Positions 1 to 60,479 of a stretch of 64,000 nucleotides of DNA are shown piece by piece (position 1 is the stretch's first letter; each line of letters starts with the position of its first letter). The DNA comes from an uncultured Kofleriaceae bacterium (lineage in GTDB: Bacteria > Myxococcota_A > Polyangia > GCA-2747355 > CAZCFB01): positions 3,301 through 67,300 of the forward strand of contig CAZCFB010000012.1 in NCBI GenBank assembly GCA_964497805.1, read 5' to 3'. The notes below the pieces were generated by a model. That model saw only the letters and a list, made by a program, of their open reading frames with translations, did not search any database and was not told where the DNA came from. The position numbers were made by a program, and so were the translations under genes.

Positions 1-885
1 AGCTTCCCCGTGGCGGGAGAGAAGGTGGAGGCCCGCTCATATCAGCTGCTGCCCGGGGGGCAGGTGGCCACCGCTATGCTGGCTGGTCAGCGCCTGGGCT
101 TGAGCTGCGCATACCTCGGGGCGGTGGGCGACGATGACCTGGCGCCCCTGGCCTGCCGGAGGCTGGAGCGCGAGGGGGTGGAGGTGCACCTGCGCCAGGT
201 GGAGGGCGGGCGCACGCAGATGTCCACCAACCTGGTCATCACCGACGGTGAACGCACCCTCCTGGAGCACTATGATCCCCGAGTGTTTATGCGCGCCGAA
301 GATCTGGAGGGGCGGCGCGGCCTGATCCAGAGCGCCAGGGCCCTGCACCTGGACATCACAGATCTGCCGGCGGCGCTGCGGGCGGCCCGGTGGGCCCGGG
401 AGGCGGGCGCCCTCGTGAGCCTGGACATCGACCGGCTGCTGCCCGGGGTGGAGGAGCTGTTCCCCCTGGTGGATCTGTTCGTGGCGGCCGAGGAGCTGCC
501 CGATCTGCTCGGCTTCAGCGATGCCGCGGATGCCCTGGCCTACCTGCGCCGGCGCTGCCCGGGGGTGGTTGGTGTTACCCGGGGTGAGATGGGGTGCCTG
601 CTATGGGCGCCGGGAGAGGACGCGCCTGCCAGCTACCCCGCCTTCCTGGTGGAGGCGGCTGACACAACAGGCTGTGGGGACGTGTTCCGCGGGGCGTTGC
701 TGTCAGCGCTGCTGCGAGGCGCCGCACCGGAGCCTGGGGACCTGACCGAGGCCGTGCGCTTCGCCGCTGCCGCCGCTGCCCTGCAGGCTCGCGCCCAGGG
801 GGCCCAGACGGCGGTGCCCGACCTGGACGCGGTGCTATCATTCCTGGCCAGCGAGCCCGAGGTGAGAGGAGGAGCGGAAGTATGA
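1..885 (+). CDS. PfkB-family carbohydrate kinase (ribokinase-like); 5' end probably outside the window
   Basis: Track ORF 10..885 stays open back to base 1. C-terminal PfkB signature DTTGCGDVFRGALLSAL. The GG region LLPGGQVATAM lies near the start, although it normally sits about 30 aa into these kinases. The stop overlaps the next ATG (ATGA at 882-885). Confidence 0.75.
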   Translation, partial: SFPVAGEKVEARSYQLLPGGQVATAMLAGQRLGLSCAYLGAVGDDDLAPLACRRLEREGVEVHLRQVEGGRTQMSTNLVITDGERTLLEHYDPRVFMRAEDLEGRRGLIQSARALHLDITDLPAALRAARWAREAGALVSLDIDRLLPGVEELFPLVDLFVAAEELPDLLGFSDAADALAYLRRRCPGVVGVTRGEMGCLLWAPGEDAPASYPAFLVEAADTTGCGDVFRGALLSALLRGAAPEPGDLTEAVRFAAAAAALQARAQGAQTAVPDLDAVLSFLASEPEVRGGAEV

Positions 886-1166
886 CCGAGGCGAAAGAGA
901 CGGGGGTTCCGGCCGGGGCCATCTACCCGCCGGCCGGAGGGCCCCACGAGGAACAGGTGGTGGATTGCACCCGGGCCTTCGCCAGGGGCGACTTCGGGGA
1001 GGCGCGCAAGCTGGCCGACCTGGTGGCCGGCGCCGGAGAGGCCACGGACGAGGAGAAGGCCTTCGCCGCGGAGGTCATCCGGCGGATCAAGATGGATCCA
1101 GTGGCGTTGTGGGTGGGCGTGGCCTGCGTGGCTATGTTCGGGGTGATTTTGGCGTTGACGATGTGA
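882..1166 (+). CDS. hypothetical small protein with C-terminal transmembrane helix
   Basis: 94-aa ORF with an ATGA overlap to the upstream kinase gene, which suggests translational coupling. Hydrophobic C-terminus ALWVGVACVAMFGVILALTM. No recognisable family. Confidence 0.45.
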   Translation: MTEAKETGVPAGAIYPPAGGPHEEQVVDCTRAFARGDFGEARKLADLVAGAGEATDEEKAFAAEVIRRIKMDPVALWVGVACVAMFGVILALTM

Positions 1167-1167
1167 T

Positions 1168-1224
1168 TTGGGGGACGGTGCTGCTTTGTTGCTATTTTTG
1201 GGGCGGTGCTGCTATTTTGGCTGG
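1168..1224. repeat. left arm of a 57-bp inverted repeat (partner 2661-2717)
   Basis: TTGGGGGACGGTGCTGCTTTGTTGCTATTTTTGGGGCGGTGCTGCTATTTTGGCTGG. Its reverse complement matches 2661-2717 at 55/57 positions. The match also shows as the shared peptide WGTVLLCCYFWGGAAILAG in track ORFs 965..1261(+) and 2459..2740(-). Confidence 0.9.
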
Positions 1225-1257
1225 CTTCCAGCCGCTCCGAACCCTTCTGTTTGGCTA

Positions 1258-2520
1258 TTAAAAGCCTTCGATGTCTGAGGTGTTGACTCCGGGTTGGGTG
1301 TCTTCGCCGGGGAACTCTTCATCACCAGTGAACAGGCCCGTGGCTGCTTCGAGTAGGCCGCCGTCATCTGGTGGTGGGGCAGCGTCGGAGCGCTCGCCGG
1401 TGAAGTAGGGCGGCTGGGGCAGGCCGTGGGTTTCAGGGCGGAAGAAGGCCTCGATCATGTCGTCGAAGCCGTCCGCCGCGAGCTTGGACTGGAAGGTGGG
1501 AACCACCCCGGTGGGGGCCATGTAGCCCTCCACCTTCTCGTCCCGGGCCGAGGCGGTCTGGGTGAAGATCCACATATCTTGCACCCGGTAGTCGCCCTTG
1601 CGGGTAAGGGGCAGCACCTCGCTGATGGCGGTGACCTTGCGGCTGCCGTCCCGCATGCGGGCCTGGCAAACCACCACGTCAATTGCCGACGAAACCTGGG
1701 CGCGAACAGCGGTCAGGGGCAGGCCGATGTCGGCCAGCAGGGCCAGGCTCTCCAGCCGGGAGAGGGTCTCTATGGGGCTGTTGGCGTGGGTGGTGCACAG
1801 CATGCCGCCGTGGCCGGTGTTCATGGCCTGCAGCAGGTCGAAACACTCACCGCCGCGCACCTCGCCGATGACGATGCGGTCCGGGCGCAGGCGCAGGGAT
1901 GAGTGCAGCAGGTCGCGCATGCTCACCTCGCCGCGGCCGTGGCGGTCCGGCGGACGGGACTCCAGGGGGACCAGGTGTTCCTGGGTCAGCTGCAGCTCGG
2001 CCGAGTCCTCGATGGTGAGGATCCGCTCCTCGTTGGGAATGGCCTGGGAGAGCACGTTGAGCAGGGTGGTCTTGCCCGAGCCAGTGCCGCCGGCCACCAC
2101 CACGTTCTTTTTGGCCACAACCAGCACTTCAAGCAGGCGCGCCGCCTCCGGGGTGACGGAGCCGAACTGGATCAGCTCCTCCACGGTGAGGCCACCGGGG
2201 AAGAATTTGCGGATGGAGATCACCGTGCCGCAGCGGGCCATGGGGGGCAGGATCACATGGATACGGGAACCATCGGGCAGGCGCGCGTCCAGGCGGGGCT
2301 GCTCCTCGGTGAGGGTCCTACCCACGTACTGCGCCATGTTGCGGGCAGCAGCCAGTAGGCCATCCTCGGTGAATTGGGCCGAGGTGCGGGTGAGCAAGCC
2401 CTTGCGCTCAATCCAGATGTCATCGGGACCATTGATCATGATCTCAGAGACGTCACGGTCATCGAGGAACTGCACAACTGGGCCGAGGAAGGCCCGGAGG
2501 GATTCGCCAAACATGTCCAT
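1258..2520 (-). CDS. cpaF: CpaF/TadA-family (VirB11-like) secretion ATPase, solitary
   Basis: Walker A VVVAGGTGSGKTTLLN, then ILTIEDSAEL, RPDRIVIGEVRG and GHGGMLCTTHANS boxes typical of CpaF/TadA hexameric ATPases. No other tad or pilus genes are adjacent. Confidence 0.8.
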   Translation of the reverse strand: MDMFGESLRAFLGPVVQFLDDRDVSEIMINGPDDIWIERKGLLTRTSAQFTEDGLLAAARNMAQYVGRTLTEEQPRLDARLPDGSRIHVILPPMARCGTVISIRKFFPGGLTVEELIQFGSVTPEAARLLEVLVVAKKNVVVAGGTGSGKTTLLNVLSQAIPNEERILTIEDSAELQLTQEHLVPLESRPPDRHGRGEVSMRDLLHSSLRLRPDRIVIGEVRGGECFDLLQAMNTGHGGMLCTTHANSPIETLSRLESLALLADIGLPLTAVRAQVSSAIDVVVCQARMRDGSRKVTAISEVLPLTRKGDYRVQDMWIFTQTASARDEKVEGYMAPTGVVPTFQSKLAADGFDDMIEAFFRPETHGLPQPPYFTGERSDAAPPPDDGGLLEAATGLFTGDEEFPGEDTQPGVNTSDIEGF

Positions 2521-2575
2521 GGACGCAGTCTATCAAGAACAGCGCGCATCCGATGCGAAACAGATGGGGTTCGGC

Positions 2576-2634
2576 GCTGTTATTTTGCCCACGCCACTGC
2601 GCCCAAACCAGCAACAACCGGCAAAATAACAGCT
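2576..2634. repeat. hairpin-forming inverted 14-mers (GCTGTTATTTTGCC / GGCAAAATAACAGC) in the cpaF leader
   Basis: 2576-2589 is the exact reverse complement of 2621-2634, with a 31-nt spacer. The 14-mer is related to the GCTGCTATTTTGGC core of the 57-bp repeat. Confidence 0.75.
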
Positions 2635-2660
2635 CCGTACCCGTACGCAGTGGCAGGAGG

Positions 2661-2717
2661 CCAGCTAAAATAGCAGCACCGCCCCAAAAATAGCAACAAA
2701 GCAACACCGTCCCCCAA
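2661..2717. repeat. right arm of the 57-bp inverted repeat (partner 1168-1224)
   Basis: CCAGCTAAAATAGCAGCACCGCCCCAAAAATAGCAACAAAGCAACACCGTCCCCCAA, 55/57 identical to the reverse complement of 1168-1224. Confidence 0.9.
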
Positions 2718-2833
2718 TACTGGCGTTGGGTGAATGTCAATTTGGCACACAGGTGTCAGTTTGGCATGCAGCGTTGACACATCGCCACGATGCCTGCCAC
2801 TCTGACTCAAGTTATTTCGCGCCCTTGGCAATT

Positions 2834-2849
2834 TGGCACTGAACTTGTA
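2834..2849 (+). promoter_or_regulatory. sigma54-type -24/-12 promoter candidate for the activator gene
   Basis: TGGCAC-tgaac-TTGTA versus consensus TGGCAC-N5-TTGCW. It lies 30 nt upstream of the ATG at 2879, with RBS AGGAGGA at 2864-2870 in between. Confidence 0.5.
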
Positions 2850-2878
2850 TCTCTTCAGGATCAAGGAGGAAAAACCCC

Positions 2879-4243
<1,365 letters not shown>

Positions 4244-4339
4244 AGCAGGGGGCCTGGGCGGGCACTTCCCACGGGTCAGGGCGGCGGGGAATGTGTATAA
4301 TCCACGTTCACCCCAATCACCGCGGGAGTTCGCCGAATC

Positions 4340-4864
4340 ATGGCCGCCACCGATGTCTCCACCGGAGAGGTCAAGGTCTGCGCATTATCAGGGCGCTTGA
4401 GGGCCAACGCCCTGGGCTCCTGTGTGGCGATCTCCGTCTACGATCGCGCGCGCAAGGTCGGCGGCATGGCTCATGTCATGCTCCCGGGCCGGTCCCCTGC
4501 CAATAAATCCCACAACGGACGCACCCGCTATCTGGATGACGCCCTGGCCGCGCTGCTGGAGGCGGTGGGGGCCGACCATGCGGACCCATGTGCAATGGAG
4601 GTTTGCGTGGCGGGTGGAGCCAACGTCCTCCGCCGGGAAGGGGACAATATCGGGGACGAGAACGCGGCCGCCGCGCTGGCCGGGCTGGAGGCCCAACGGA
4701 TCCCGGTGGCTGCCGCCTCAACCGGGGGGACCAGGCGGCGCACCATGACCCTGCACCTGGCTGACGGCAGGGTGACACACACGGTGGGAGATTCGGCAGA
4801 GCTCCTGCTCTGGAACGGCGGCGGCCGAAGTGAGAACCCCGGCGGATGGAGGCAGGCCCCATGA
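4340..4864 (+). CDS. cheD: chemoreceptor glutamine deamidase CheD
   Basis: 174 aa with LGSCVAISVYD and GGMAHVMLPG, the CheD Cys and His contexts. The length is typical for CheD. Confidence 0.8.
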   Translation: MAATDVSTGEVKVCALSGRLRANALGSCVAISVYDRARKVGGMAHVMLPGRSPANKSHNGRTRYLDDALAALLEAVGADHADPCAMEVCVAGGANVLRREGDNIGDENAAAALAGLEAQRIPVAAASTGGTRRRTMTLHLADGRVTHTVGDSAELLLWNGGGRSENPGGWRQAP

Positions 4865-7065
4865 GCGACGAGCAAGACGGGGCCGTGACCCCCGAGGAGC
4901 TGGAGCAGAGGCTGCGGGAGCGGGTCAAGGAGCTCACCTGCCTCTACGAGCTGTCACGCATGGTTGAGAACGTTGAGCGCCCACTGGGCGAAACCGTGGA
5001 GCTGCTCCTGCCCAAACTCAAGGTCGCGTGGCGGGCGCCGGAGGAGACCACCTGCGTCCGGATCAAGGTCGGGGACGAGGTCTGGCAGACGGAGGACTTC
5101 GTCAAACCGGTGGCGGTACAGACGGCCGCCATCCCAGGGGACGACCGCTGGCCCGTCGGTGAGGTGGCGGTGGGCTACCTGGAGCCGTGGCCACTACTGG
5201 ACGAGGGACCTTTCCTCCACGAGGAGCGGTTCCTGATCAACACCGTGGCCCGCGCGCTGGGCAACCTGGCCAAGCGGCAGCGGGTGCTGGAGGAGATCCA
5301 GGCTGCCAACCAGCAGCTCGAGGCGTCCAACCAACAGCTGCGGGCCAACGAGCAGCAGCTCCAGGCGGCCAACCAACAGCTGCGAGCCAACGAGCAGCAG
5401 CTCCAGGCGGCCAACCAACAGCTGCGGGCCAACGAGCAGCAGCTCCAGGCGGCCAACCAACAGCTGCGGGCCCATGAGCAGCAGCTGGAGGCGGCCAACC
5501 TGGAGGTCAGGGCCAGCGAAGCCCGCTACCGCGGCGTGCTCAACAGCCTCGACTCCGGGGTGGTGGTCCACGCCGCGGACACCTCCATCGTGCTGGCCAA
5601 CCCGCGCGCCTGCGAGATCCTCGGCCTCACCCTGGGCCAGATGGAGGGGAAGGAGGCCATCGATCCCCAGTGGCAGTTCACCCGCGAGGATGACACCACC
5701 TTGCCCCTGGAAGAGTACCCGGTGATGAAGGTGCTCTCACGGGGAACCGACCTGCGCACAATGGTCGTGGGGGTCTACCGGCCGCAGCACAAGGACAAGG
5801 TCTGGGTGCTGGTCAACGGCCACCCCATGTACAACGACGAAGGGGTGGTGGAGCAGGCGATCATCAGCTTCACCGACATCACCCGGCAGAAGGTGGCCGA
5901 GGAGCAGAAACACCGGCTCCAGGCTCAGCTGCTCCAGGCCCAGAAGATGGAGGCCATCGGCACCTTGGCAGGCGGCGTGGCCCACGACTTCAACAACATC
6001 ATCACCGTGATCAAGTCCAACGTGGAGATCGCCCTGGAGGACGAGGGCGGAGACCTCGAAGCCATGGACGAGATCAAGGAGGCGGCCCAGCGCGCCGGTG
6101 AGCTGACCCGCCAGCTGCTGCTCTACAGCCAGAAGCAGCCCATGAACCTGGAGCCGCTGAGCCTCAACGAGGTGGTGCTGGTCTTCTCCTCCATGATCCG
6201 CCGCATCATCGGCGAGGATGTGGCACTGCACAGCGAGTTCGGCGCGAACCTGTGGGGGATCAAGGCAGACCGTGGGAACCTGGAACAGGTCCTGATGAAC
6301 CTGGCGGTCAACGCCCGGGACGCCATGGCCGACGGCGGGGATTTGTTTGTCTGTACAAGCAACCTGACCCTGGACGAGGCCGACGCCGCTCTCCATGCAG
6401 AGGGCGCCCCCGGGGAGTACGTCCTGTTGGAGATGAGGGACACCGGCGAGGGCATCCCGGAGGATGTCCTGGAGCGTGTGTTCGAGCCGTTCTACACCAC
6501 CAAGAAGGCTGGCCGGGGCACGGGGCTCGGCCTCTCGGTGGTCTACGGCATCGTGCAGGAGCACGGCGGGTGGATCGAGGTGACGTCGGCCGAGGGGGAG
6601 GGGGCGACCTTCCGCATCTTCATCCCCCGCACCAGGAAGAAGTCGGCGGCCCCGGCGAGGGTTAAGCAGTTAACCCCGGAAAACCTGGGGCTGGGAGAGC
6701 GGATCCTGTTGGTGGAGGATGATCCGCCGGTGCTGGCCACCATGACCCGCATCCTCGACCGGCATGGGTATCAGGTAACCGTGGCCACGACGGTGGCGGA
6801 GGCGGAGGCGCTCTTCGCCGGGGCGGACGAGCCGATTGACCTGCTCCTGTCGGACGTCATCCTGCCCGACGGCTCAGGCCTCGACATGGCCGTGAAGCTG
6901 GCCGGGGAAAACCCGGAGCTGAAGGTGCTCGTGGCCAGCGGTTACCCGGGGGACAGGTTCGGCTATGAGGAGCTGAAGAAGCAGGGGCTCCCCTTCATCC
7001 AGAAGCCGTTCGAGCTGGGCGCTCTGGTGGGTATGGTGCGCCAAATCCTCGACGGGAAGGCGTAG
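4861..7065 (+). CDS. hybrid sensor histidine kinase (coiled-coil repeat, PAS, HisKA, HATPase_c, REC)
   Basis: H-box GGVAHDFNNIITVI. HATPase boxes NLAVNARDAM, DTGEGI and GTGLGLSVVYG. C-terminal receiver LLSDVILPDGSG. Start set at ATG 4861 (GGAGG at 4848-4852, ATGA overlap with the cheD stop). The track start at 4846 is the alternative. Confidence 0.85.
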   Translation: MSDEQDGAVTPEELEQRLRERVKELTCLYELSRMVENVERPLGETVELLLPKLKVAWRAPEETTCVRIKVGDEVWQTEDFVKPVAVQTAAIPGDDRWPVGEVAVGYLEPWPLLDEGPFLHEERFLINTVARALGNLAKRQRVLEEIQAANQQLEASNQQLRANEQQLQAANQQLRANEQQLQAANQQLRANEQQLQAANQQLRAHEQQLEAANLEVRASEARYRGVLNSLDSGVVVHAADTSIVLANPRACEILGLTLGQMEGKEAIDPQWQFTREDDTTLPLEEYPVMKVLSRGTDLRTMVVGVYRPQHKDKVWVLVNGHPMYNDEGVVEQAIISFTDITRQKVAEEQKHRLQAQLLQAQKMEAIGTLAGGVAHDFNNIITVIKSNVEIALEDEGGDLEAMDEIKEAAQRAGELTRQLLLYSQKQPMNLEPLSLNEVVLVFSSMIRRIIGEDVALHSEFGANLWGIKADRGNLEQVLMNLAVNARDAMADGGDLFVCTSNLTLDEADAALHAEGAPGEYVLLEMRDTGEGIPEDVLERVFEPFYTTKKAGRGTGLGLSVVYGIVQEHGGWIEVTSAEGEGATFRIFIPRTRKKSAAPARVKQLTPENLGLGERILLVEDDPPVLATMTRILDRHGYQVTVATTVAEAEALFAGADEPIDLLLSDVILPDGSGLDMAVKLAGENPELKVLVASGYPGDRFGYEELKKQGLPFIQKPFELGALVGMVRQILDGKA
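5302..5493 (+). repeat. in-frame tandem repeat: 42-bp unit (two 21-bp heptad units), about 4.5 copies, encoding (A-x-x-Q-Q-L-x)x9
   Basis: GCCAACCAACAGCTGCGGGCCAACGAGCAGCAGCTCCAGGCG recurs at 5326, 5368, 5410 and 5452 with 0-4 changes. The peptide is AANQQLEASNQQLRANEQQLQAANQQLRANEQQLQAANQQLRANEQQLQAANQQLRAHEQQLEA. Confidence 0.9.
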
Positions 7066-9056: not shown

Positions 9057-9324
9057 TCCCAGCTCCTGAAGGGTCCTGCGACCCTTCGGCGTCCCCAAAT
9101 TCAAAGCTGATCTGAGTTGAGATTTTAGTCCGGGGGCCTACCCGGTGACAACAGTCACTGGCTGTACTGCCACCGGGGCCCGGACACGCCCTCCGGGGTG
9201 CCAGTCCTGTTGCCAATTTGGCACTCGGTTTCGGGCAAGATCGGTCCCATTGCCAGAATGTCCCAAAGAGGGGCCGAGTATCGATTTCGCCCCAATGTTT
9301 TCAGGTAATTAGCCTGTTGACAGT

Positions 9325-9340
9325 TGGCATCGAGTTTGCT
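9325..9340 (+). promoter_or_regulatory. sigma54-type -24/-12 promoter candidate for the gsp operon
   Basis: TGGCAT-cgagt-TTGCT is a near-consensus match to TGGCAC-N5-TTGCW, 49 nt upstream of the gspD ATG. A perfect TTGACA at 9316-9321 overlaps it, so a sigma70 reading cannot be excluded. Confidence 0.6.
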
Positions 9341-9388
9341 CTAACTCAGCCCGAGCCAGTGACTGCTCATCACTACAGGGTATCCAGC

Positions 9389-11908
9389 ATGAAGCCAAGT
9401 CGCATTCCCAAACTGATCCCGGCCGCGGCCATCGCCGCCACGGTCATCCTCATCGCCGGCCTGATGATACCGGCCACTTCCCATGCCCAGTCCAGAGGTG
9501 GCAGGGGCGGGGGCCGGGCGGACGAAACCCGCTCAGGGGGCGCCGCCAAGGCGGAGAAGGAGGTCGCCGGCAGCGCGGGCGATCCTCTGGCCACCACGGT
9601 CACCACCACCACGGCCGGTGGGAAGATCAAGGTGGAGCCAGCCAAGCTGGAGTACAACGAGTGCCTTGGCCGTAAGGCCCGCCGGGCCGCGTACAAGTTC
9701 TCCCTGAACAAGGGCACCGAGCTGCTGGAGCTGGTGGAGTTGATCAGCAAGATGACCTGCAAGCGGTTCATCGTCTCGGAGACCCTGCGCGCCCAGAAGG
9801 TGACCATCATCTCGCCGGAGAAGATCACGGTGGAGGAGGCGTACAAGGCGTTCCTCAGCTCCCTGGACGTGATGGGGCTCACCGTGGTGCCGGCTGGCCG
9901 CTACCTGAAGATTGTCCAGGGGAACTGGGCCATCCAGGGCCCGATCAAGACCTTCGGCGACAAGCAGAAGGGGCGCACCCCCCTCACCGATGACGTGGTG
10001 ACGCAGATCATCCAGGTCAAGAACGTGGACGTAAACGAGATGCTGCTGGTGCTGAACAAGCTGAAGTCGCGTAACGGCGACATCACCGCTTACAAGCCCA
10101 GCAACTCTCTGATCATCACCGACAACGGCTACAACATCCGCCGCATGCTCTACCTGATCAAGGAGCTGGACCTGGAGTCCGAGGGGGAGAAGATCTGGGT
10201 GGTCCGTCTCAAGTACGCCGACCCGGACGAGGTGAACAAGATCCTGAGCCAGCTCTTCTCGGCCACGGGCAACGCGCGGCCCCAGGTGCGGGGGAGGCCG
10301 GGCAGGCAGCGGGACGACGCCAGCCAGGTGCGCGCCTCAAAGATCGTCTCCGACTCTGCCTCCAACTCCCTGATCATCGTTGCCAGCACCGGCTCGTTCA
10401 ACCGCATCGCCTCCCTGATCAAGAAGCTCGACGTGGAGGAGGACGCGGCCACGCAGAAGGTACATGTCTACTACCTGGAGAACGCCGACGCCGAGGACCT
10501 CTCCAACACCCTCGGCGCCCTCACGGGCACTTCGGGCGGCCGCAACGTACGCGGCCGGCGGCCAGCGCGGCGGCCCGGCGGCGGCCAGCAGGCGGCCACC
10601 CTGTTTGAGGGGGACGTCAAGATCAGCGCTGACAAGCCCACCAACTCCCTGGTCATCGTGGCCACCACCAAGGACTACCTGAACCTGCGCGGCGTGATCC
10701 AGAAGCTGGACATCCCGCGCCGGCAGGTGTTCGTGGAGGCGAGCATCCTCGAGATCAGCATGGACAACACGAAGAAGGTGGGCTTCGCCTACCACGGCGG
10801 CGGCGTGGCGGGGGAGGGGGACACCGAGTCCCTGATCTTCGGCGGCGTGGAGTCCTCGGACCTGAACTCCCTGCTGGTCAACCCCCTGGGCATGATGGGC
10901 CTGGCCGTGGGCGTGAGGGGCGCGGAGATCCAGGGGTCCGGGCAGCTGCTGGGCGTGGGCACCGACATCCCTGGCTTCGGCGTCATGTTCCAGGCGCTGC
11001 AGAACAACAGCGACGTGAACATCCTCTCCTCTCCTCACATCCTCACCACCGACAACGAGGAGGCGGAGATCACGGTGGGGCAGAACCTGCCGTTCCAGGG
11101 CGCCATGATGGGCGGCGGCTTCGGCGGGCTCGCAGGTGCGGCTGGCGCGGCTGGCGCTGCCGGCGGCGCGGCGGCGCTCTCCTCCTTCCTGCCCGGCGTC
11201 TCGGTGCAGCGCCAGGACGTGGCCCTGAAGATGAAGATCACCCCCCACGTCAACGAGAGCGAGATGGTGCGCCTTGAGCTGGAGCAGGAGGTCTCGGACA
11301 TCGTCTCCCAGAACTTCAACGGCATGGGGCCGGCCACCTCCAAGCGTTCGGCCAAGACGGTGGTGGTGGTGCGTGATCAGCAGACCGTCGTCATCGGCGG
11401 CCTCATGGGCAACCGGGTGCGCAACTCGGTGAGCAAGGTGCCGATCCTGGGCGACATCCCGATCCTGGGTTACCTGTTCAAGTACAAGAAGAAGACCACC
11501 GAGAAGACGAACCTGCTCATCGTGTTGACCCCGTACATCATCCGGGACCAGACCGACCTGCGGCGTATCCTGAAGAAGAAGATGGAGGAGCGGCGGGAGT
11601 TCATCGAGCGCTACACCAGCTTCAAGTACCACGAGATAACCGCCGACGTGGACTTCCGCCACAAGCGCGGCCTGCTTGCCGAGATCAACCGCGTGGCGGG
11701 CCAGGCCGAGCAGGAGGCCAAGCTGCTGGAGGAGGCGCGCAAGGCGTCGGAGCCGGAGGACGTGGAGCCGGTGGAGATGCCCACTGGCATGACCGTGACG
11801 CCGGTGAAGGGCAAGGGCACCAGGCGCAACCCGCGCCGGCAACCCGCCTCGGAGATTCGCCACCCGCCGCGGCCAGTTATCCGCGAGCGGCCCAGGCGGA
11901 TTCGCTAG
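9389..11908 (+). CDS. gspD: type II secretion system secretin GspD
   Basis: Signal peptide MKPSRIPKLIPAAAIAATVILIAG. N-domain repeats (NSLIITD, NSLIIVAS, NSLVIVAT). Secretin domain (VVIGGLM...VPILGDIPILGYLFKY). Start moved to ATG 9389, in frame with track ORF 9218. Confidence 0.9.
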   Translation: MKPSRIPKLIPAAAIAATVILIAGLMIPATSHAQSRGGRGGGRADETRSGGAAKAEKEVAGSAGDPLATTVTTTTAGGKIKVEPAKLEYNECLGRKARRAAYKFSLNKGTELLELVELISKMTCKRFIVSETLRAQKVTIISPEKITVEEAYKAFLSSLDVMGLTVVPAGRYLKIVQGNWAIQGPIKTFGDKQKGRTPLTDDVVTQIIQVKNVDVNEMLLVLNKLKSRNGDITAYKPSNSLIITDNGYNIRRMLYLIKELDLESEGEKIWVVRLKYADPDEVNKILSQLFSATGNARPQVRGRPGRQRDDASQVRASKIVSDSASNSLIIVASTGSFNRIASLIKKLDVEEDAATQKVHVYYLENADAEDLSNTLGALTGTSGGRNVRGRRPARRPGGGQQAATLFEGDVKISADKPTNSLVIVATTKDYLNLRGVIQKLDIPRRQVFVEASILEISMDNTKKVGFAYHGGGVAGEGDTESLIFGGVESSDLNSLLVNPLGMMGLAVGVRGAEIQGSGQLLGVGTDIPGFGVMFQALQNNSDVNILSSPHILTTDNEEAEITVGQNLPFQGAMMGGGFGGLAGAAGAAGAAGGAAALSSFLPGVSVQRQDVALKMKITPHVNESEMVRLELEQEVSDIVSQNFNGMGPATSKRSAKTVVVVRDQQTVVIGGLMGNRVRNSVSKVPILGDIPILGYLFKYKKKTTEKTNLLIVLTPYIIRDQTDLRRILKKKMEERREFIERYTSFKYHEITADVDFRHKRGLLAEINRVAGQAEQEAKLLEEARKASEPEDVEPVEMPTGMTVTPVKGKGTRRNPRRQPASEIRHPPRPVIRERPRRIR

Positions 11909-11921
11909 AGGAGGCGAGGCC

Positions 11922-13658
<1,737 letters not shown>

Positions 13659-13824
13659 AGATGTCCGAGGCGCGAATAATGATGCGGTTTGGTCGAGAAA
13701 CTGGCGCCGAGGTCAAGGCGCGACGACGAAGGCGTACCAGAGGTACGTCGAGGAGGAGCAACGCAGAGATCGGCGCCTGGGGCCGGCCAGACCGCGTTGT
13801 GACTTCCGCCGAGGACATCTAACC

Positions 13825-15057
13825 GTGCCGGTATTCGCGTACAAGGGCGTCGACGCCAAGGGCAAGCAGGTTTCCGGGGTCAAGGACGCCGATGGCCGCC
13901 GGGGGCTGCGCGCCTCGCTCCGCAAGGAGGGGGTGCTGGTCACCGACATCTCCGAGGAGCGGGAGCGGGTCGTCAGCGGCGAGGGGCTCAACCGAGAGGT
14001 GGACGTCAAGGGGCTGTTCGACCGGGTCCGGCCCCAGGACGTGGCGGTCGTCACGCGCCAGCTCGCCACCCTCATCCGCGCGGGCATCCCCCTGGCCGAG
14101 TCCCTGTCCGCCATGGGGGAGCAGGCCACCAGCGACCGGCTCAAGCGGTGCATGGCCGAGATACGCACCAAGGTTAACGAGGGCACGTCTCTGGCCGACG
14201 CCCTGGCCGAGCATCCGAAGATCTTCGACGATCTGTACGTGAACATGGTCCGCGCGGGCGAGGCTGCCGGGAACCTGGACGATGTGTTGGCCCGGCTGGC
14301 CGACTTCCTCGACGGGCAGGTGAAGCTCAAGGGGAAGGTCCAGGGGGCCATGGTCTACCCCATCGTCATGGCCATGGTGAGCGTGGCCATCACCGGCATG
14401 TTGATGGTGGTGGTGGTGCCGAAGATCACCGAGATCTTCTCCGACATGGGCCGGTCTCTGCCCTGGAACACTCAGCTGCTGGTCTGGCTCAGCGGTATCA
14501 CCGGGAACTACTGGTGGCTGATCCTCCTGCTGTCCGCTGGAGGGTATTACGGGTTCAAGCGCTGGAAGACGAGCAAGTCCGGGAAGCCGGTGTACGACGG
14601 CATCGTGCTGCGGCTCTGGCTGGTGGGGCCCCTGGTGCGCATGGTGGCGGTGGGCCGGTTTGCCCGCATCCTCGGCACCCTGCTCCACGGCGGCGTGCCC
14701 CTGCTGCAAGCCCTGGAGATCGTCAAGTTCCTGCTGGGCAATGAGGTGCTGATCAAGGTGGTGGACAAGGCGCGGGTCTCCATCCGCGAGGGCGAGAGCA
14801 TCGCCGCCCCGCTGGAGAAGAGCGGCCAATTCCCGCCGCTGGTGACCCGGATGATCGCGGTGGGGGAGCGGTCGGGCCACCTGGAGGAGATGCTGGAGAA
14901 CGTGGCCCAGGCCTACGAGACCGAGGTGGAGCTGAAGCTGAACCGGCTGACCACCCTGATGGAGCCGCTGCTGATCCTCTCCATGGGCGGCATCGTGGGC
15001 TTCATCGTGTTCTCCATCCTGATGCCGATCCTGGAGATGAACGAGATGGTGGGGTAG
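13825..15057 (+). CDS. gspF: type II secretion inner-membrane platform protein GspF
   Basis: 410 aa with a duplicated GspF/PilC-type domain (LATLIRAGIPL, LGTLLHGGVPLLQAL) and three hydrophobic segments. GTG start. Confidence 0.9.
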   Translation: MPVFAYKGVDAKGKQVSGVKDADGRRGLRASLRKEGVLVTDISEERERVVSGEGLNREVDVKGLFDRVRPQDVAVVTRQLATLIRAGIPLAESLSAMGEQATSDRLKRCMAEIRTKVNEGTSLADALAEHPKIFDDLYVNMVRAGEAAGNLDDVLARLADFLDGQVKLKGKVQGAMVYPIVMAMVSVAITGMLMVVVVPKITEIFSDMGRSLPWNTQLLVWLSGITGNYWWLILLLSAGGYYGFKRWKTSKSGKPVYDGIVLRLWLVGPLVRMVAVGRFARILGTLLHGGVPLLQALEIVKFLLGNEVLIKVVDKARVSIREGESIAAPLEKSGQFPPLVTRMIAVGERSGHLEEMLENVAQAYETEVELKLNRLTTLMEPLLILSMGGIVGFIVFSILMPILEMNEMVG

Positions 15058-15080
15058 GGCCCGCCAAACTGGAGGCAGTT

Positions 15081-15512
15081 ATGAGCTTGATAATGAACGT
15101 GGCGAAGGCCCTGAAGAAGAAGCAGCGGCCTGCTCAGGAACGTGAGCTGGGTATGACCCTCATCGAGATCATGGTGGTGGTGGCCATCATCGGGTTGCTC
15201 ATGGGGACGGTGGGCGTGGTGGCGTACAACCGCTTCCAGAAGGCGAAGCTCACCAACGCCAAGATGATCGTCAAGAACATGCAAGAGGCGATCGTGCACT
15301 ACTTCATGGACAACCAGGACAAGTGCCCCACCGACCTGAAGGCCCTGTACACCCAGAAGTACATCAACAAGGAGCCCCAGGACCCGTGGGGTCAGGAGCT
15401 GAAGTTCAAGTGCCCGGGGGAGAACGACACCCAGGGCGCGGACATCTACTCCATGGGGCCTGACCGCAAGGACGGCACCGAGGACGACATCAAGAGCTGG
15501 GAGCTCGACTAG
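15081..15512 (+). CDS. gspG: major pseudopilin GspG
   Basis: Prepilin motif LG/MTLIEIMVVVAIIGLL. C-terminal GspG signature DPWGQELKFKCPG...GPDRKDGTEDDIKSW. Confidence 0.9.
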   Translation: MSLIMNVAKALKKKQRPAQERELGMTLIEIMVVVAIIGLLMGTVGVVAYNRFQKAKLTNAKMIVKNMQEAIVHYFMDNQDKCPTDLKALYTQKYINKEPQDPWGQELKFKCPGENDTQGADIYSMGPDRKDGTEDDIKSWELD

Positions 15513-15518
15513 GGGTGC

Positions 15519-16388
15519 ATGCGCCGCGCCGGGTCACATAGGCGGGAGACCGCCGGATTCACCATCATGGAGCTGATGATCGTCGCGGCGATCTTCGGGC
15601 TGATCATGGTGGGCGCCACGGCGAGCCTGCGCAACCTGACCCGGGCCGACCTCCGCTCGGCGGCCAGCCGCACCGCGGGGGCCATGCGCTACGTCTTCGA
15701 CCGCGCGGCCATGACCGGCCACTACCTCCGCCTGGCCATCGACATCAAGGAGGGCCGCATCTGGATCGAGTACTCCGAGGACCTGGTCCGCCTGCGCGCC
15801 GGCCGGGAACAGCATGTACTGGAGAAGGGGCAGAAGGATCACTCCGGCGAGGCGCGGGCCAAGCTGCGCCAGGCCGCCGAGGAGCGCAAGGGCGGCAGCG
15901 ACTTCCTCGGCTCCATGCTCGGGCTGGGAGGAGACGACGACTACGACGAGGACGGCAACCTGCTGGAGGATGACGAGGAGTTCATCGGGGGGCTGGACGG
16001 CAAGCAGATCGCGGACGAGGCGGAGCTGATGAACATGCCGGTGATCCGGCCCAAGGCCTCCTTCAAGCCGCTTCAAAACGTGGTGACGCGCACCATCAAG
16101 CTCAAGGGCGGGGTGAAGGTCGCCTCGGTGATCACGCCCCGCCTCGCGGAGGCCACCAAGCAGGGGATGGCGTACATCTACTTCTTCCCTCAGGGCCACA
16201 GCGAGCCCGCCATCGTCTACTTCACCGACGAGGAGGAGGAGAAGGTCTACTCGGTGGTGCTGCACCCGCTCACGGGTCGGTCGGTGGTCTACTCATGCGA
16301 GTACGAGATCCCCGACGACTTCGGCGTGAGCGACGACAAGCGCAAGTCCACAAGCCGTGAGAAGTGCAAGAAGGGTGGGAGCTTGTGA
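15519..16388 (+). CDS. gspH: minor pseudopilin, GspH-like (unusually long, acidic insert)
   Basis: Prepilin motif AGFTIMELMIVAAIFGLIMV. Lies directly after gspG. 289 aa with the insert GGDDDYDEDGNLLEDDEEF. Confidence 0.6.
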   Translation: MRRAGSHRRETAGFTIMELMIVAAIFGLIMVGATASLRNLTRADLRSAASRTAGAMRYVFDRAAMTGHYLRLAIDIKEGRIWIEYSEDLVRLRAGREQHVLEKGQKDHSGEARAKLRQAAEERKGGSDFLGSMLGLGGDDDYDEDGNLLEDDEEFIGGLDGKQIADEAELMNMPVIRPKASFKPLQNVVTRTIKLKGGVKVASVITPRLAEATKQGMAYIYFFPQGHSEPAIVYFTDEEEEKVYSVVLHPLTGRSVVYSCEYEIPDDFGVSDDKRKSTSREKCKKGGSL

Positions 16389-17092
16389 GGCGCGCCCGGC
16401 CACATACCGCGGGCTTCACCCTGCTGGAGGTGATGATCGCCCTGGCGATCCTTGCCATGTCCCTGATCACCCTCTCCAGCTCGTACCAGAACAGCGTGCG
16501 GGCGGCCAATCGGTCCCGGCTCATGACCGAGGCCACCCTGCTGGCTCGCTACAAGATGGTCGAGGTGGAGGAGGAGATCTTCAAGGAGGGCTTCTCTGAC
16601 TTTGATGAGGAGGAGGAGGGGGACTTCGAAGACGAGGATTTCGAGCGGTTCAAGTACACGCTCCTGGTGGAGAAGGTGGAGCTGCCCAAGTCGGTTGACC
16701 AACAGGACGCCATGGATCTGATGGGGAGCAGCTCCAGCTCTTCAAGCTCGTCCTCCTCATCCTCCTCGGGCACCGGCAGCCCCATGGACATGCTGGGCGG
16801 CGGCATCCTCGCCTCCTACTACGACATGATCCGCCAGGTGCTGGAGCGGAGCATCCGGCGGGTGCAGCTCAAGGTGCACTGGAAGGAGGGGGCCGTCTCC
16901 CGTGAGGTGACGGTGGTCTCCTACTTCACCGACGATCGCTACATCTCCCAGGCGGCCTCTGGATCGCTCTCCCCGGCCGGCCTGAACACCTCGGGCACAA
17001 GCGGCACAGGCGGCACGGCCACCTCGGGCTCCTCCGGCGCCGGCTCCCCATCCACCGCGCCGGCCATGAACACGGGAGGGCTCAAGCGGTGA
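16385..17092 (+). CDS. gspI: minor pseudopilin, GspI-like (poly-Ser insert)
   Basis: Prepilin motif AGFTLLEVMIALAILAMSL. Start set at GTG 16385 (GTGA overlap with the gspH stop). The track start at 16364 is the alternative. Confidence 0.6.
   Translation: MRRARPHTAGFTLLEVMIALAILAMSLITLSSSYQNSVRAANRSRLMTEATLLARYKMVEVEEEIFKEGFSDFDEEEEGDFEDEDFERFKYTLLVEKVELPKSVDQQDAMDLMGSSSSSSSSSSSSSSGTGSPMDMLGGGILASYYDMIRQVLERSIRRVQLKVHWKEGAVSREVTVVSYFTDDRYISQAASGSLSPAGLNTSGTSGTGGTATSGSSGAGSPSTAPAMNTGGLKR
16727..16768 (+). repeat. 14-codon serine homopolymer inside gspI
   Basis: AGC AGC TCC AGC TCT TCA AGC TCG TCC TCC TCA TCC TCC TCG. Mixed Ser codons argue for selection on the peptide rather than slippage. 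Confidence 0.9.
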
Positions 17093-17790
17093 TCCGGTCA
17101 CGGTCACAGTCACGGTCGCTGGACCAGGGCTTCACGCTCATGGAGGTCCTGGTCTCTCTGGCGATCCTGGCGGGTATGTCCACCATCGTCTGGGGCTCCT
17201 TCTCCATGACCTCGCGCACCAAGCGCAAGGTGGAGGACATCGAGGACCGGTACCACCAGATCAGGCTCGCGATGAACCGCATGGCGCGGGAGATCAGCAT
17301 GGCCTACCTGTCCAAGAACGATCAGCCCATGGCCCAGACGCCGCGCACCATGTTCATCCACTCGCGGGAGAGCTCGGTGGACGAGCTGATGTTCAGCAAC
17401 TTCGCCCACACGCGCCTGCGCGAGGAGGCCAAGGAGTGCGATCAGGCGGTGATCCGGTACTTCAGCGCGGCGGATCCGGAGGACAGCAGCCAGACCAACC
17501 TGATGCGGCGGGAGACCCGCCGGCTGGGCAGCCTGAAGCCGGAGGACGAGGGGCCGGCCTACGTGATGCTCGAGGACATCGAGGAGCTGCACTTCGAGTT
17601 CTTCGACGACCAGATGAACGAGTGGAAGGACACCTGGAATACGCGGTCCCTGGACGGCCAACCCGACCGGCTGCCGGCCAAGATCAAGATCGAGCTCACC
17701 GTGGAGGATTACTGGGGCAAGGAGATCACCTTCGTCACCGCCACGCGGATCTTTGTGCGCAACCCGCTCTGGTTCAGCGCGGGGTCCTAG
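17089..17790 (+). CDS. gspJ: minor pseudopilin GspJ-like
   Basis: Prepilin motif QGFTLMEVLVSLAILAG. 4-bp overlap with gspI. Size and position fit GspJ. Confidence 0.65.
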   Translation: MIRSRSQSRSLDQGFTLMEVLVSLAILAGMSTIVWGSFSMTSRTKRKVEDIEDRYHQIRLAMNRMAREISMAYLSKNDQPMAQTPRTMFIHSRESSVDELMFSNFAHTRLREEAKECDQAVIRYFSAADPEDSSQTNLMRRETRRLGSLKPEDEGPAYVMLEDIEELHFEFFDDQMNEWKDTWNTRSLDGQPDRLPAKIKIELTVEDYWGKEITFVTATRIFVRNPLWFSAGS

Positions 17791-17802
17791 AGGAGAGATG
17801 GA

Positions 17803-19113
17803 GTGAAAGAGGGCCACCACAAACGACGCCGCAATGACCGGGAGCGGGGCGCGGCCCTGGTCTCCGTGGTCGTCGTGGTGGCGGTGATGGCCGTGACCAC
17901 GGCGGACTTCGCCTTCAACACCACCATGGATCTGGCCGCGGCGGCCAACGCGCGGGACGACCTGCGCGCCCACTTCCTGGCCCGCTCCGGCATCAACCTG
18001 TCCCGGCTGCTCTTCCGCCTGCAGCAGCGCATCATCGATCCGAACCGCAAGTTCCTGGGCGGCATGGACCTGCAGGTGGCCGACTACGCGCCCCTGCTCA
18101 TGAGCGCGTTCAACAGCAAGGAGGGGGCAGCGCTGCTCGGCTCCCTGTTCGGCATCAGCGAGGGCGAGATCAAGGGGATCGGGGTGGACGTGGGCACCTT
18201 TGACCTGGAGGTGGAGTCCACCGATGGCCGCATCAACCTGAACTGCGGGGGCGGAGCGAACCCGTCCAGCCCGTCGGTGGTGCGCATGGCCGCGGGGCTC
18301 ACGGCCATGATGATGGCCCCCCGCTATAACCGCCTGTTCGAGGAGCCGGACTCCAAGGGGGAGTACGCCGACCGGCTGGAGATCCTGCGCGCCATCATCG
18401 ACTGGGTGGACCAGGACACCGTGATGTTCGGCTCCTCCGCGGTGGAGGACTACCGCTACAACACCGGCAAGGACCCGTACGAGAACAAGAACCAGTACCT
18501 CGACACCATCGACGAGCTGTACCTGATCAAGGGCGTCGAGGAGGACTGGATGGACGCGTTCCGCTCCTCGGTGACGGTGTACGGCGCGTGCAAGGTGAAC
18601 GTGAACATCGCCACGCCCACCACCATCGTCGCCCTGATCCTGCAGTACGCTCAGACCCCGACCCACCCCTCCATGCGGTGGGAGAACGTAATGCTCCTCT
18701 CCCGCTATGTGGTGCACCTGCGCGACTACTTCGGTGGGTTCAAGGACGAGGAGTCGTTCGTGCGGGCGATCATCGACCCCATGGACGTGACGCTCACGGC
18801 GTACAAGCAGGGGTTCGGGCAGATCTCGGCGGGTACGGGCAGCAGCTCATCCACGACGTCAACCCCACCCAAGAACGTGTCCTCCTACCAGCAGTCGCTG
18901 CCTCCTGTCATCGGGGTGCCGGTGAAGAAGAAGCCGCTCAAGGAGGCCATCGTGGCGGGAGGGCCGCGGAGGATCTACGAGATCCGGGCCACGTCCGAGG
19001 TGGGGCATATCAAAAAGAAGATCACCGCGGTTTGGGACATGAAGCTGATCCCGATGTCGCGGACGCAAGCTCAGGCAGGGCCCGGCGGGTTCCTGTACTG
19101 GCGGGAGGAGTAA
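17803..19113 (+). CDS. gspK: minor pseudopilin GspK-like
   Basis: N-terminus ERGAALVSVVVVVAVMAV, the pseudopilin-like helix without Glu5 seen in GspK. 436 aa. Position fits the operon order. Confidence 0.65.
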   Translation: MKEGHHKRRRNDRERGAALVSVVVVVAVMAVTTADFAFNTTMDLAAAANARDDLRAHFLARSGINLSRLLFRLQQRIIDPNRKFLGGMDLQVADYAPLLMSAFNSKEGAALLGSLFGISEGEIKGIGVDVGTFDLEVESTDGRINLNCGGGANPSSPSVVRMAAGLTAMMMAPRYNRLFEEPDSKGEYADRLEILRAIIDWVDQDTVMFGSSAVEDYRYNTGKDPYENKNQYLDTIDELYLIKGVEEDWMDAFRSSVTVYGACKVNVNIATPTTIVALILQYAQTPTHPSMRWENVMLLSRYVVHLRDYFGGFKDEESFVRAIIDPMDVTLTAYKQGFGQISAGTGSSSSTTSTPPKNVSSYQQSLPPVIGVPVKKKPLKEAIVAGGPRRIYEIRATSEVGHIKKKITAVWDMKLIPMSRTQAQAGPGGFLYWREE

Positions 19114-19116
19114 CCC

Positions 19117-20700
19117 ATGGCGCAGATGGTCCTCGGGATCGATTTGGGATCCCACAGCGTCAAGGTAGCCCGGCTGGAGGTTGGGATGCGCAAGGTTGAG
19201 GTCGCGCACCTGGAGACCCTCCCGGTGCCCTCGGGGCCCGAGCCGCAGCTCACGCGCAGCCTGGAGGCGCTCCAGGGGTTGGAGCTACCCGACAGCGGCG
19301 TGGACCTGGTGACCCTCGGGCTCCCCGGGGACAAGGTGCTGCAGCGGCTGTTCGAGATCCCGGTCACCGACGCCAGGCGGCTGGCGGCGGTGGTCCAGAA
19401 CGAGCTGGCCGACGACATCCCGTGGGAGGTGGATGAGGTCCTGTTCGACCACGCGGCGGTGCCCCAGTTGCCGGGGCAGGTGCTGGTGGTGGCCACCCGA
19501 TCCGAGGCAGTGGAGGAGGTGATCGAGGCCTGCGAGCCGCTGGAGATCACCCCACGCAATATCCCCCCGGCGCCGCTGAGCTATGGCCAGCTGCTGCGGG
19601 GCGCTGACGCGGACGGCGTGACCCTGGTGGCTGACATCGGCCACCGCCTGACAAACCTCTGCCTGGTGGCCGACGGCAGGCCCATCTCGGCCCGCTCCAT
19701 CTCCCGCGGCGGCTACAACTTCACCGACGCCATCCGGCGGGCCTTCCAGATCTCATTTGACGAGGCGGAGGACCTCAAGGAGCGGTACGCGCAGGTGGCC
19801 CCCGGCGACGGGGAGGGGCTGGATCCCAGGGTCAAGGCCATGACGGGGATCCTCCGGGAGGCGCTGGATCCGCTGGTGCGTGAGATGCGCCTCACCCTCG
19901 GCGTGATGGGCGGCAAGCTCGGCATGGCGCCGGGGCGGATCCTCCTCTGCGGCGGCACGAGCCTGCTGCCCGGGCTGGACGAACACCTGTCCGCGGAGCT
20001 GGGGCTCCCGTGCAAGCGCCTGAGCCTGGACCAGGACCCGAACATGTCGGTGGGGGGCATGACCGGCGACGCCCAGGCCCTGGGGGCGCTCTCGTTGGGC
20101 CTCTGCCTGCAGCAGGGCGGCAGGACCGGCCTGGACCTTCGTCAGGGTGAGTACGCCTTCCGCACGGACAGCTCCATCTTCCGCGAGAAGCTCACCACCC
20201 TGGCCGTGTCCACGGTGCTGATCCTGGTGTTCCTCACCCTCAACGCCCTGAGCAGCCTCTACTCCATGCGCAAGGAGGAGGTCCTGCTCAAGAACCGCCT
20301 GAAGCAAGCCTCCCGGGCCGTGTTCGGCGAGGTGATCACGAGCCCGCGTAAGATCTCGCTCATGATCCGCCGTGGCTCCGGGCCGCGGGGCGCGGTGATC
20401 CCGGAGAAGACCGCATTTGACCTGCTGAACCTCTTCTCGAGCAAGATCCCGGCCTCCATGGAGGGGGAAACCGACAAGAAGGGGAAGCCGGTGAAGCTAA
20501 ACCTGGACATCGCCCGCCTGGATATCAAGCAGGAGAAGACCTCCATGTCGGGCACGGCTGATTCCCGCTCCCAGATCGACTCCATCGTCAAGGCGGTGTC
20601 GTCGGATCCATGCGTGAGCAAGGTGACCCAGGGCAAGATCTCGACGGTGGCGGAGGAGAAGAAGCAGTTCTCCCTCACCATCTTTACGGAGTGTTTTTAG
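19117..20700 (+). CDS. gspL: GspL-like assembly protein with PilM/actin-like N-terminal domain
   Basis: VLGIDLGSHSVKVARLE actin-fold start. One transmembrane segment LTTLAVSTVLILVFLTLNAL. Lies between gspK and gspM. Confidence 0.6.
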   Translation: MAQMVLGIDLGSHSVKVARLEVGMRKVEVAHLETLPVPSGPEPQLTRSLEALQGLELPDSGVDLVTLGLPGDKVLQRLFEIPVTDARRLAAVVQNELADDIPWEVDEVLFDHAAVPQLPGQVLVVATRSEAVEEVIEACEPLEITPRNIPPAPLSYGQLLRGADADGVTLVADIGHRLTNLCLVADGRPISARSISRGGYNFTDAIRRAFQISFDEAEDLKERYAQVAPGDGEGLDPRVKAMTGILREALDPLVREMRLTLGVMGGKLGMAPGRILLCGGTSLLPGLDEHLSAELGLPCKRLSLDQDPNMSVGGMTGDAQALGALSLGLCLQQGGRTGLDLRQGEYAFRTDSSIFREKLTTLAVSTVLILVFLTLNALSSLYSMRKEEVLLKNRLKQASRAVFGEVITSPRKISLMIRRGSGPRGAVIPEKTAFDLLNLFSSKIPASMEGETDKKGKPVKLNLDIARLDIKQEKTSMSGTADSRSQIDSIVKAVSSDPCVSKVTQGKISTVAEEKKQFSLTIFTECF

Positions 20701-29848: not shown

Positions 29849-29959
29849 TGGGGCAAACCATTTATCTGGGCGCCATGGGTATCGTTGACCTGCGCGGCCA
29901 CGCCATCACCATCGTGTTGTATGCACCCTGAAGAGATCGAACATCAGGAGGTGAACGTC

Positions 29960-36684: not shown

Positions 36685-36727
36685 GCTGGCTTGGAGTTTA
36701 ACGTAAGTTGCTGTTTCTGCGAGCACA

Positions 36728-51490: not shown

Positions 51491-51518
51491 GGTATGGAAC
51501 AGTATAGACTTAACGCCC

Positions 51519-60444: not shown

Positions 60445-60479
60445 GGATTCAACCGCATGGCGGGGTCTGCCGCGAGAAC

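Follow-up and report, generated by a model that had tools for sequence, protein, structure and literature searches.

The window analysed here is a stretch of 64,000 nt from contig CAZCFB010000012.1 of an uncultured Kofleriaceae bacterium (assembly GCA_964497805.1). Close to its left end, a gene for a CpaF/TadA-like ATPase is enclosed by the two arms of a long inverted repeat. An initial annotation of this DNA had described the arms as 57-bp inverted repeats around exactly one gene, and had proposed three readings: an invertible cassette, a foldback element or MITE (a miniature transposable element with inverted repeats) that captured or flanks the gene, or a duplex between the untranslated regions of the messenger. 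The present analysis indicates that the repeat is very probably the result of two insertions of one small MITE-like mobile repeat, in opposite directions, on either side of a resident gene. The locus is made up as follows:

1258-2520, minus strand: gene for a CpaF/TadA-like ATPase of 420 aa with PF00437 and a C-terminal PF27713/UCP018868 domain; enclosed by the element copies and outside the element
1168-1242, no strand assigned: left arm of the 75-nt inverted repeat (repeat search)
2643-2717, no strand assigned: right arm of the 75-nt inverted repeat (repeat search)

The inverted repeat is real and longer than had been claimed. A repeat search of the window delimited two arms of 75 nt, 91% complementary and 1400 nt apart, and BLAST matched the core of the arms at 56 of 58 positions. 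The longest exact inverted match within positions 1-6000 was 37 nt, against a maximum of 18 nt and a mean of 14 nt in 50 shuffles. Two assemblies, L001 (ENA) and L002 (JGI), contain the identical sequence including the arms (100% identity), so the sequence is not an artefact arising in the assembly of a single contig. As had been stated, the left arm occupies the gap 3' of the ATPase gene, this being the 91 nt between two convergent stop codons (the open reading frame (ORF) of 94 aa ends at 1166, and the ATPase stop lies at 1258-1260). The inner edge of the right arm (2643) is located 123 nt upstream of the ATPase ATG (2520). The two tandem units described for each arm were recovered by the repeat search (1166-1191 and 1194-1219, 81% alike), and the local hairpin is present and also exceeds its first description (2567-2589 with 2620-2642, 23 nt per arm, 91%). 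A profile search detected the 23-nt unit exactly six times in the 64 kb, each time at one of the two flanks of the ATPase gene.

Gapped alignment revealed that both arms are copies of one bounded element with both termini in common. The long copy has a length of 163 nt and the short copy of 88 nt, the latter being devoid of an internal segment of 74 nt: positions 1168-1233 align to 2717-2652 at 62 of 66 positions, and 1234-1255 to 2577-2555 at 19 of 22. Each arm is considered as a bounded copy because the same two ends are found in both, with one clean internal deletion between them. The '57-bp inverted repeat' is merely the portion common to two oppositely oriented copies of a small element. 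In the long copy, three units (U1, U2 and U3) are arranged as direct repeats and a fourth (U4) is inverted, the inner end being an imperfect inverted repeat of the outer one; for this copy, folding back on itself is predicted at -74 kcal/mol. The AT-rich character attributed to the arms in GC-rich DNA was borne out, since the copies display 56% GC and the window 67%. The copies and their units are the following:

1168-1255, plus strand: short copy of the MITE-like element, 88 nt, outer terminus at 1168 (gapped alignment; missing from the 13-17-nt gap of the relatives)
1171-1192, plus strand: U1 of the short copy, GGGGACGGTGCTGCTTTGTTGC, one mismatch to the terminal 22-mer of the family (unit profile)
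1198-1221, plus strand: U2 of the short copy (repeat search, unit profile)
1219-1233, no strand assigned: small hairpin GGCTGG-CTT-CCAGCC in the short copy, between two convergent genes (sequence, fold)
2555-2717, minus strand: long copy, 163 nt, outer terminus at 2717, three direct units and one inverted unit (a single insertion block against L003, L007 and L009 in alignment A1)
2693-2714, minus strand: U1 of the long copy, the exact terminal 22-mer of the family, GGGGACGGTGTTGCTTTGTTGC (pattern match)
2664-2687, minus strand: U2 of the long copy (gapped alignment, unit profile)
2620-2642, minus strand: U3 of the long copy, which makes up one side of the local hairpin (repeat search, unit profile)
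2567-2589, plus strand: U4, in the opposite direction to U1-U3; it supplies the second arm of the local hairpin and the inverted unit at the element's inner end (repeat search, fold, unit profile)

Both copies are non-coding, and their sizes fall in the range of tens to a few hundred bp that is expected of a MITE. Terminal inverted repeats are present in the long copy, although imperfect, in the form of the outer U1/U2 and the inner inverted U4. The small hairpin at 1219-1233 is not followed by a run of U, and the terminator scan made no call there. No known RNA family was recognised: Rfam returned nothing for the whole window at gathering thresholds, and a permissive search of positions 1000-3000 and of six related loci gave chance-level matches only.

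The origin of the arms was addressed by comparison with the closest relatives of the ATPase (P0002, P0004 and P0003), which show 88-90% identity. The loci L003-L006, L007/L008 and L009-L011 were compared with the window using alignments of the 5' (A1) and 3' (A2) intergenic regions. Gene order and orientation are kept in these relatives, with a sigma54 response regulator, the divergent ATPase, a convergent 94-aa gene, PfkB and biotin carboxylase. The 5' intergenic region measures 177-246 nt in the relatives and 358 nt in the window, while the gap between the convergent stops measures 13-17 nt and 91 nt, respectively. According to both alignments, the extra intergenic DNA of the window corresponds exactly to the two element copies, and both insertion sites are empty in L003-L011. 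The search of relatives that the initial annotation had called for did not reveal any 23-nt unit in L003, L007 and L009 or in the more distant L068 and L069; L071, outside this unit search, has short gaps. The element therefore displays four hallmarks of a MITE, namely small size, lack of coding capacity, termini that are inverted repeats, and insertion sites that are empty in the relatives.

The same comparison defines the status of the enclosed gene. Identity to the relatives amounts to 88-90% for the ATPase, 90-94% for the regulator and 67-75% for the 94-aa gene and PfkB. As the ATPase occupies the same site in the same orientation in relatives without the repeats, and as its divergence is in line with that of the regulator, sequence comparison identifies it as a resident and not a captured gene, and the arms as lineage-specific insertions. 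The ORF at 1258-2520 (minus strand) is indeed the sole enclosed gene, as initially described, but the term cargo does not apply to it. Likewise, the proposal of a foldback or MITE-like element holds in that MITE-like elements flank the gene, and fails in that the gene was not captured, the relatives being syntenic without the repeats.

Two further scenarios were weighed against these data. Intramolecular replicative transposition is a process which leaves two inverted copies around a segment and inverts the segment itself. A single insertion followed by such an event would thus have duplicated the element in inverted form, in agreement with the presence of exactly two inverted copies around a segment, and would have inverted the DNA between them. 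The orientation of the ATPase gene, divergent from the regulator and convergent with the 94-aa gene, is however the same as in all element-free relatives. This conserved orientation rules out an inversion product, and the scenario is scarcely credible. Alternatively, the two copies may form a composite MITE-bounded mobile unit, with the ATPase as cargo that was captured or is still to be moved. At the outer ends of both copies, the terminus of an element family described below is found in inverted orientation, which is the geometry needed by a transposase, and MITE-bounded units carrying integrons are known (PMC10969869). Against this, the ATPase is found at its ancestral position and orientation with concordant divergence, no direct repeat surrounds the whole unit (the sequence is GATGTGAT outside 1168 and ATACTGGC outside 2717), and no second copy of the whole unit was found. 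Neither foreign cargo nor a flanking target duplication, as expected of a composite transposon, is present. Capture of the ATPase is ruled out by conserved synteny and concordant identity, and a composite unit is highly improbable.

Further observations were made at the corresponding sites of the relatives. A different small insertion is located in L007 (4940-4985; also in L008; P0004) at the spot equivalent to window positions 2555-2717. It consists of two 19-nt palindromes, GGCGGGGTC(A/T)GACCCCGCC, about 30 nt apart, and looks similar to repetitive extragenic palindromic (REP) sequences, unrelated to the window element. An insertion at the same spot in L007 indicates that the upstream spacing is not critical and that the site tolerates insertions. 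On the other side of the gene, the P0003 contigs of three samples (L009 at 6270, L010 at 3564 and L011 at 1944) all end 1 nt past the ATPase stop, which suggests a repeat or a strain polymorphism directly downstream of the ATPase in the P0003 lineage.

The position of the arms relative to the transcripts was evaluated from two promoter features:

2527-2535, minus strand: TGaTAGACT, lying 6 nt before the ATG and downstream of the long copy, candidate extended -10 element (proposed from the conservation of TAnnnT)
2834-2849, plus strand: sigma54-type -24/-12 site TGGCAC-N5-TTGTA of the divergent response-regulator gene (2879-4243), invariant in alignment A1 and outside the element

The hexamer TAnnnT is found 6-8 nt before the ATG in six of the eight orthologous loci (the window, L003, L007, L009, L070 and L071), and no Shine-Dalgarno sequence precedes the ATG at 2520. 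Together, these two features suggest that the ATPase mRNA is leaderless and starts at the ATG, in which case the long copy would lie upstream of its promoter and the message would not include the upstream arm. A scan of positions 1000-3000 for the sigma70 consensus did not give any site, and the interval between the upstream arm and the ATG contains a weak hairpin and, after it, T-rich sequence (2557-2545, minus strand). At the other end, the short copy begins 2 nt past the stop codon and thus lies almost certainly within the 3' end of the ATPase transcript.

These features bear on the proposal of an RNA clamp, according to which both arms are part of the ATPase mRNA and pair in a duplex of about 75 bp, circularising the message and creating a substrate for RNase III or a means of translation control. 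The duplex is physically possible, with a predicted energy of -132.4 kcal/mol; the short copy would be included in the transcript; and RNase III is known to cut MITE-containing transcripts in the case of Correia elements (PMC10969869). The upstream arm, however, would be excluded from the message by the comparative evidence for a leaderless mRNA, and is further separated from the ATG by the weak hairpin and T-rich stretch. No sigma70-like promoter was detected upstream of that arm in the scan, and the relatives lack both arms, which indicates that the ATPase does not need them. A clamp is thus improbable, and of the original idea the possibility of the duplex is the part that stands.

The third proposal was that a recombinase flips the segment 1243-2642 between the arms and alters ATPase expression by phase variation, as in invertons such as fimS and hin, in which inverted repeats also bound a DNA segment. 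Long near-perfect inverted repeats around exactly one gene are consistent with it, and an exact core of 37 nt is sufficient in length for rare homologous recombination. Invertons, however, have short repeats, a dedicated invertase and usually a promoter as their content in place of a gene with its own promoter, and none of these was found at the window locus. No site-specific recombinase is encoded within about 6 kb (PfkB, the 94-aa ORF, the sigma54 regulator, CheD and hybrid kinases); the sole recombinase in the window is a XerD equivalog (37000-37905, 361 bits for a cutoff of 329.6), located 34 kb away, which is presumably the housekeeping enzyme of dimer resolution. The window, L001 and L002 display one orientation (three of three assemblies), and close relatives carry the same gene without the arms.

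The promoter geometry is equally unfavourable to a switch. The candidate promoter at 2527-2535 is inside the segment and would flip together with the ATPase. Flipping had been expected to align the gene with sigma54-type promoters at 2743-2849, of which the site at 2834-2849 was retained and the motifs at 2735-2767 were not. The retained site lies to the right of the cassette and points rightward into the regulator gene, so that flipping would leave the ATPase on its upstream side and outside its control. Overall, an invertible cassette found no support and is very unlikely. As for the motifs, three 14-mers of the type TG(T/G)CA(A/G)TTTGGCA(C/T) are present at 2735-2767 and 2826-2849, the third of which overlaps the sigma54-type site. 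The first two, TGTCA(A/G)TTTGGCA(C/T), were rejected as sigma54 promoters as they are not accompanied by a -12 element at the right spacing. They are conserved in the relatives, 70-110 nt upstream of the sigma54-type promoter, and look like candidate activator sites for the regulator gene's own promoter (autoregulation). This gene (2879-4243) encodes a Sigma54_activat domain.

A link of the copies to mobile DNA came from metagenome Ga0315286. The outer 23 nt of the window element, GGGGACGGTGTTGCTTTGTTGCT, match the terminal inverted repeat of MITE-like elements of about 170-190 bp in this metagenome. Matches were obtained on at least eight contigs, four of which hold complete elements of 170-188 bp bounded by perfect 28-nt terminal inverted repeats, GGGGACGGTGTTGCTTTGTTGCTTTACT. 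Their interiors differ while their termini are identical, as recognition by a transposase predicts. TA is found on both sides of three of the four complete copies, but may belong to the terminus. The homology of the window copies starts at most 3 nt from the family terminus, and this shared terminus ties the window element to the Ga0315286 family. The genes beside the Ga0315286 elements (PD40, radical SAM, FG-GAP, DUF4062 and NUDIX) are unrelated to each other and to secretion ATPases.

In reference genomes, the pattern GGGRCGGTGYTGCTWTKTTG gave 24 matches compared to about 17 expected by chance (hand estimate), most of them in coding regions of unrelated taxa or in orthologous copies of a single site. 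The exact 20-mer was the commonest of the 16 pattern variants, with 16 matches at 12 loci with differing flanks; these include metagenome-assembled genomes (MAGs) named PVC-group bacterium and 'uncultured bacterium', as well as another sediment sample. Two of the matching loci deserve a separate mention. In the Deltaproteobacteria MAG Meg19_02_Bin_77 (L021, 5681-5745), two inverted copies of GGGGACGGTGTTGCTTTTTTGCC situated between convergent ORFs build a perfect hairpin, its stem measuring about 30 bp. It may represent either a relative of the element in minimal form or a terminator acting in both directions. In L037 (about 2530-3650, reverse strand), two direct copies of the 22-mer are 857 nt apart and close to a separate repeat of about 200 nt with over 90% identity, suggesting that several repeat families are mixed as a mosaic in that organism.

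That all six 23-nt units of the 64 kb are concentrated at the two flanks could also be explained by arrays of binding sites for a locus-specific protein, for instance the adjacent sigma54 regulator, that loop out or insulate the ATPase. The regulator of the relatives is nevertheless 90-94% identical without any such units in their loci, the same 22-mer is present beside unrelated genes in unrelated organisms, and the likely sites of the regulator are the conserved TGTCAATTTGGCAC-type 14-mers at 2735-2767. Such a function is extremely unlikely.

Several points weigh against an origin by two insertions of a mobile element. What the window element shares with the Ga0315286 family is the identical 23-nt terminus only, the interiors being different. 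A target-site duplication is not definable for either window copy, the intergenic DNA of the relatives being too diverged. No third copy was detected in the 64-kb window by BLAST or by the unit profile, and a look-up with the ORF at 62029-62916, meant to prolong the contig, returned no record. Under random insertion, it is unlikely that two copies would lie 1.3 kb from each other while the other 62 kb contain none; such a spacing requires either local hopping or the selection of a rare case by the initial annotation. Finally, searches beside the matches, on plasmids, on viral contigs and in the literature, ISfinder lying outside them, did not uncover any autonomous element or transposase having these ends, and a cognate autonomous partner, which is a further mark of a MITE, was thus not observed. 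In particular, no transposase is encoded beside the window copies, beside the single matches L030, L037, L016 and L031, or beside the Ga0315286 elements. BLAST of the terminus against plasmids gave unrelated genes only, with E-values of 2 or higher, viral contigs gave a single chance-level match, and the literature search for the terminus sequence did not reveal any paper containing it.

Comparison with known systems helped to place the element. The Correia repeat-enclosed elements (CREE) of Neisseria are the best-studied bacterial MITEs and occur at two lengths, the shorter one carrying an internal deletion. The window element resembles them in being small, non-coding and intergenic, with terminal inverted repeats and both long and internally deleted forms. 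In contrast, there is no sequence similarity, and the window termini carry tandem sub-repeats of 23 nt, with no TA duplication, site for integration host factor or promoter recognised in the window element. Correia elements may be located just upstream or downstream of genes, and their transcribed hairpins can be cut by RNase III (PMC10969869, PMC2649163). A review (PMC10969869) documents MITEs located on either side of genes, their role as hotspots of recombination and their effects on transcripts. The same source describes MITE-flanked class 1 integrons of Acinetobacter, where a coding segment lies between two copies of a single MITE (PMC10969869). This arrangement of two copies around a coding segment is also seen in the window, but the integrons are foreign DNA moved as a whole unit, whereas the window harbours a resident orthologue at its ancestral site.

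A relationship with REP sequences and their composite forms was also considered (bacterial interspersed mosaic elements, BIME; REP doublets forming hairpins, REPIN), which are mobilised by REP-associated tyrosine transposases (RAYT). These are likewise short extragenic repeats, often located between convergent genes, and their inverted pairs form hairpins; comparable pairing is seen here with U3/U4 and in the L021 hairpin. The window unit GGGGACGGTGTTGCTTTGTTGC, however, is devoid of internal dyad symmetry and is not palindromic, and the relatives in Ga0315286 have the appearance of classic elements, about 170 bp long and delimited by terminal inverted repeats. No RAYT/Y1 transposase was found among the window ORFs scanned, from which 29885-30388, 32239-36792, 40748-44521, 51072-54977 and 57938-63981 were left out. 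Neither the palindromic unit nor the RAYT gene that characterise REP/REPIN systems was thus observed.

The ATPase itself belongs to the T2SSE family (PF00437, 1.6e-57, 195 bits), but scores below the cutoff of the TadA-type equivalog (TIGR03819, 293 bits for a cutoff of 373.15). It is a member of a large subfamily of about 400 aa with PF27713/UCP018868, of which the named members are mostly from Myxococcota or 'Deltaproteobacteria' MAGs. The initial annotation had called it a solitary cpaF. No tad genes (TadB/C, CpaA-E or Flp pilin) adjoin it, and the locus is thus not a tad operon, but solitary is an overstatement. A cluster resembling type II secretion and type IV pilus systems is located 6.7 kb from the ATPase (9218-20700) and comprises a secretin, a GspE-type ATPase with MshEN domain, GspF, an N-methyl pseudopilin, T2SSJ, T2SSK and PilM. 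The sigma54 regulator, CheD and two PAS hybrid histidine kinases are encoded between the ATPase and this cluster. In L008, L009, L068 and L071, the ATPase is again paired with a divergent sigma54 regulator and has a secretin gene close by, so that this pairing is conserved.

Two side observations were made in this neighbourhood. The regulator-secretin interval differs between loci, with an HNH/DUF222 protein in L003 (2009-3322) and two PemK-type toxin genes in L068 (1654-2414), and is therefore regarded as a variable spot. In the window, one hybrid histidine kinase gene (4846-7065) contains tandem 42-nt repeats (5269-5520, 82-95% identical), which code for a repeated stretch rich in Q, N and L, resembling a coiled coil.

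Taken together, insertion of a mobile repeat on both sides of the gene would have proceeded as follows. The ATPase gene would have been vertically inherited and resident before two copies of a non-coding element of the MITE kind inserted, in opposite orientation, into both intergenic gaps flanking it. The upstream copy would be the full-length form of 163 nt, and the downstream copy the same element after the internal deletion of 74 nt. From the anatomy of the element, the empty sites and the dispersed relatives, we infer that movement occurred in trans, by a transposase recognising the termini GGGGACGGTGYTGCTTTGTTGC. The long copy would have settled upstream of the likely leaderless promoter, and the short copy in the brief gap between convergent genes. 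The pair of copies is probably without designed function, although side effects are possible in the form of a rare RecA-type inversion across the exact core of 37 nt or of RNA pairing in read-through transcripts. Chances are slim that the copies are retained as a co-opted module for control or mobilisation of one gene, in which a 75-bp duplex in read-through transcripts would be processed or silenced, or the repeats would serve as substrate for flipping or mobilising the gene.

A striking inverted repeat of 75 nt around one gene, therefore, need not mean a switch. Comparison of the site with close relatives, together with the scattered terminus, accounts for the repeat as two insertions of a mobile repeat, and the element is most likely an ordinary genome feature and not a gene switch. 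The CpaF-like ATPase, for its part, belongs to a conserved module with a divergent sigma54 response regulator and a cluster of type II secretion kind nearby. The MITE-like family does not seem to have been described before. Its terminus of 22-28 nt, GGGGACGGTGTTGCTTTGTTGC(TTTACT), is exactly conserved in uncultured bacteria of different named groups with widely differing GC, which implies a transposase spreading between lineages.

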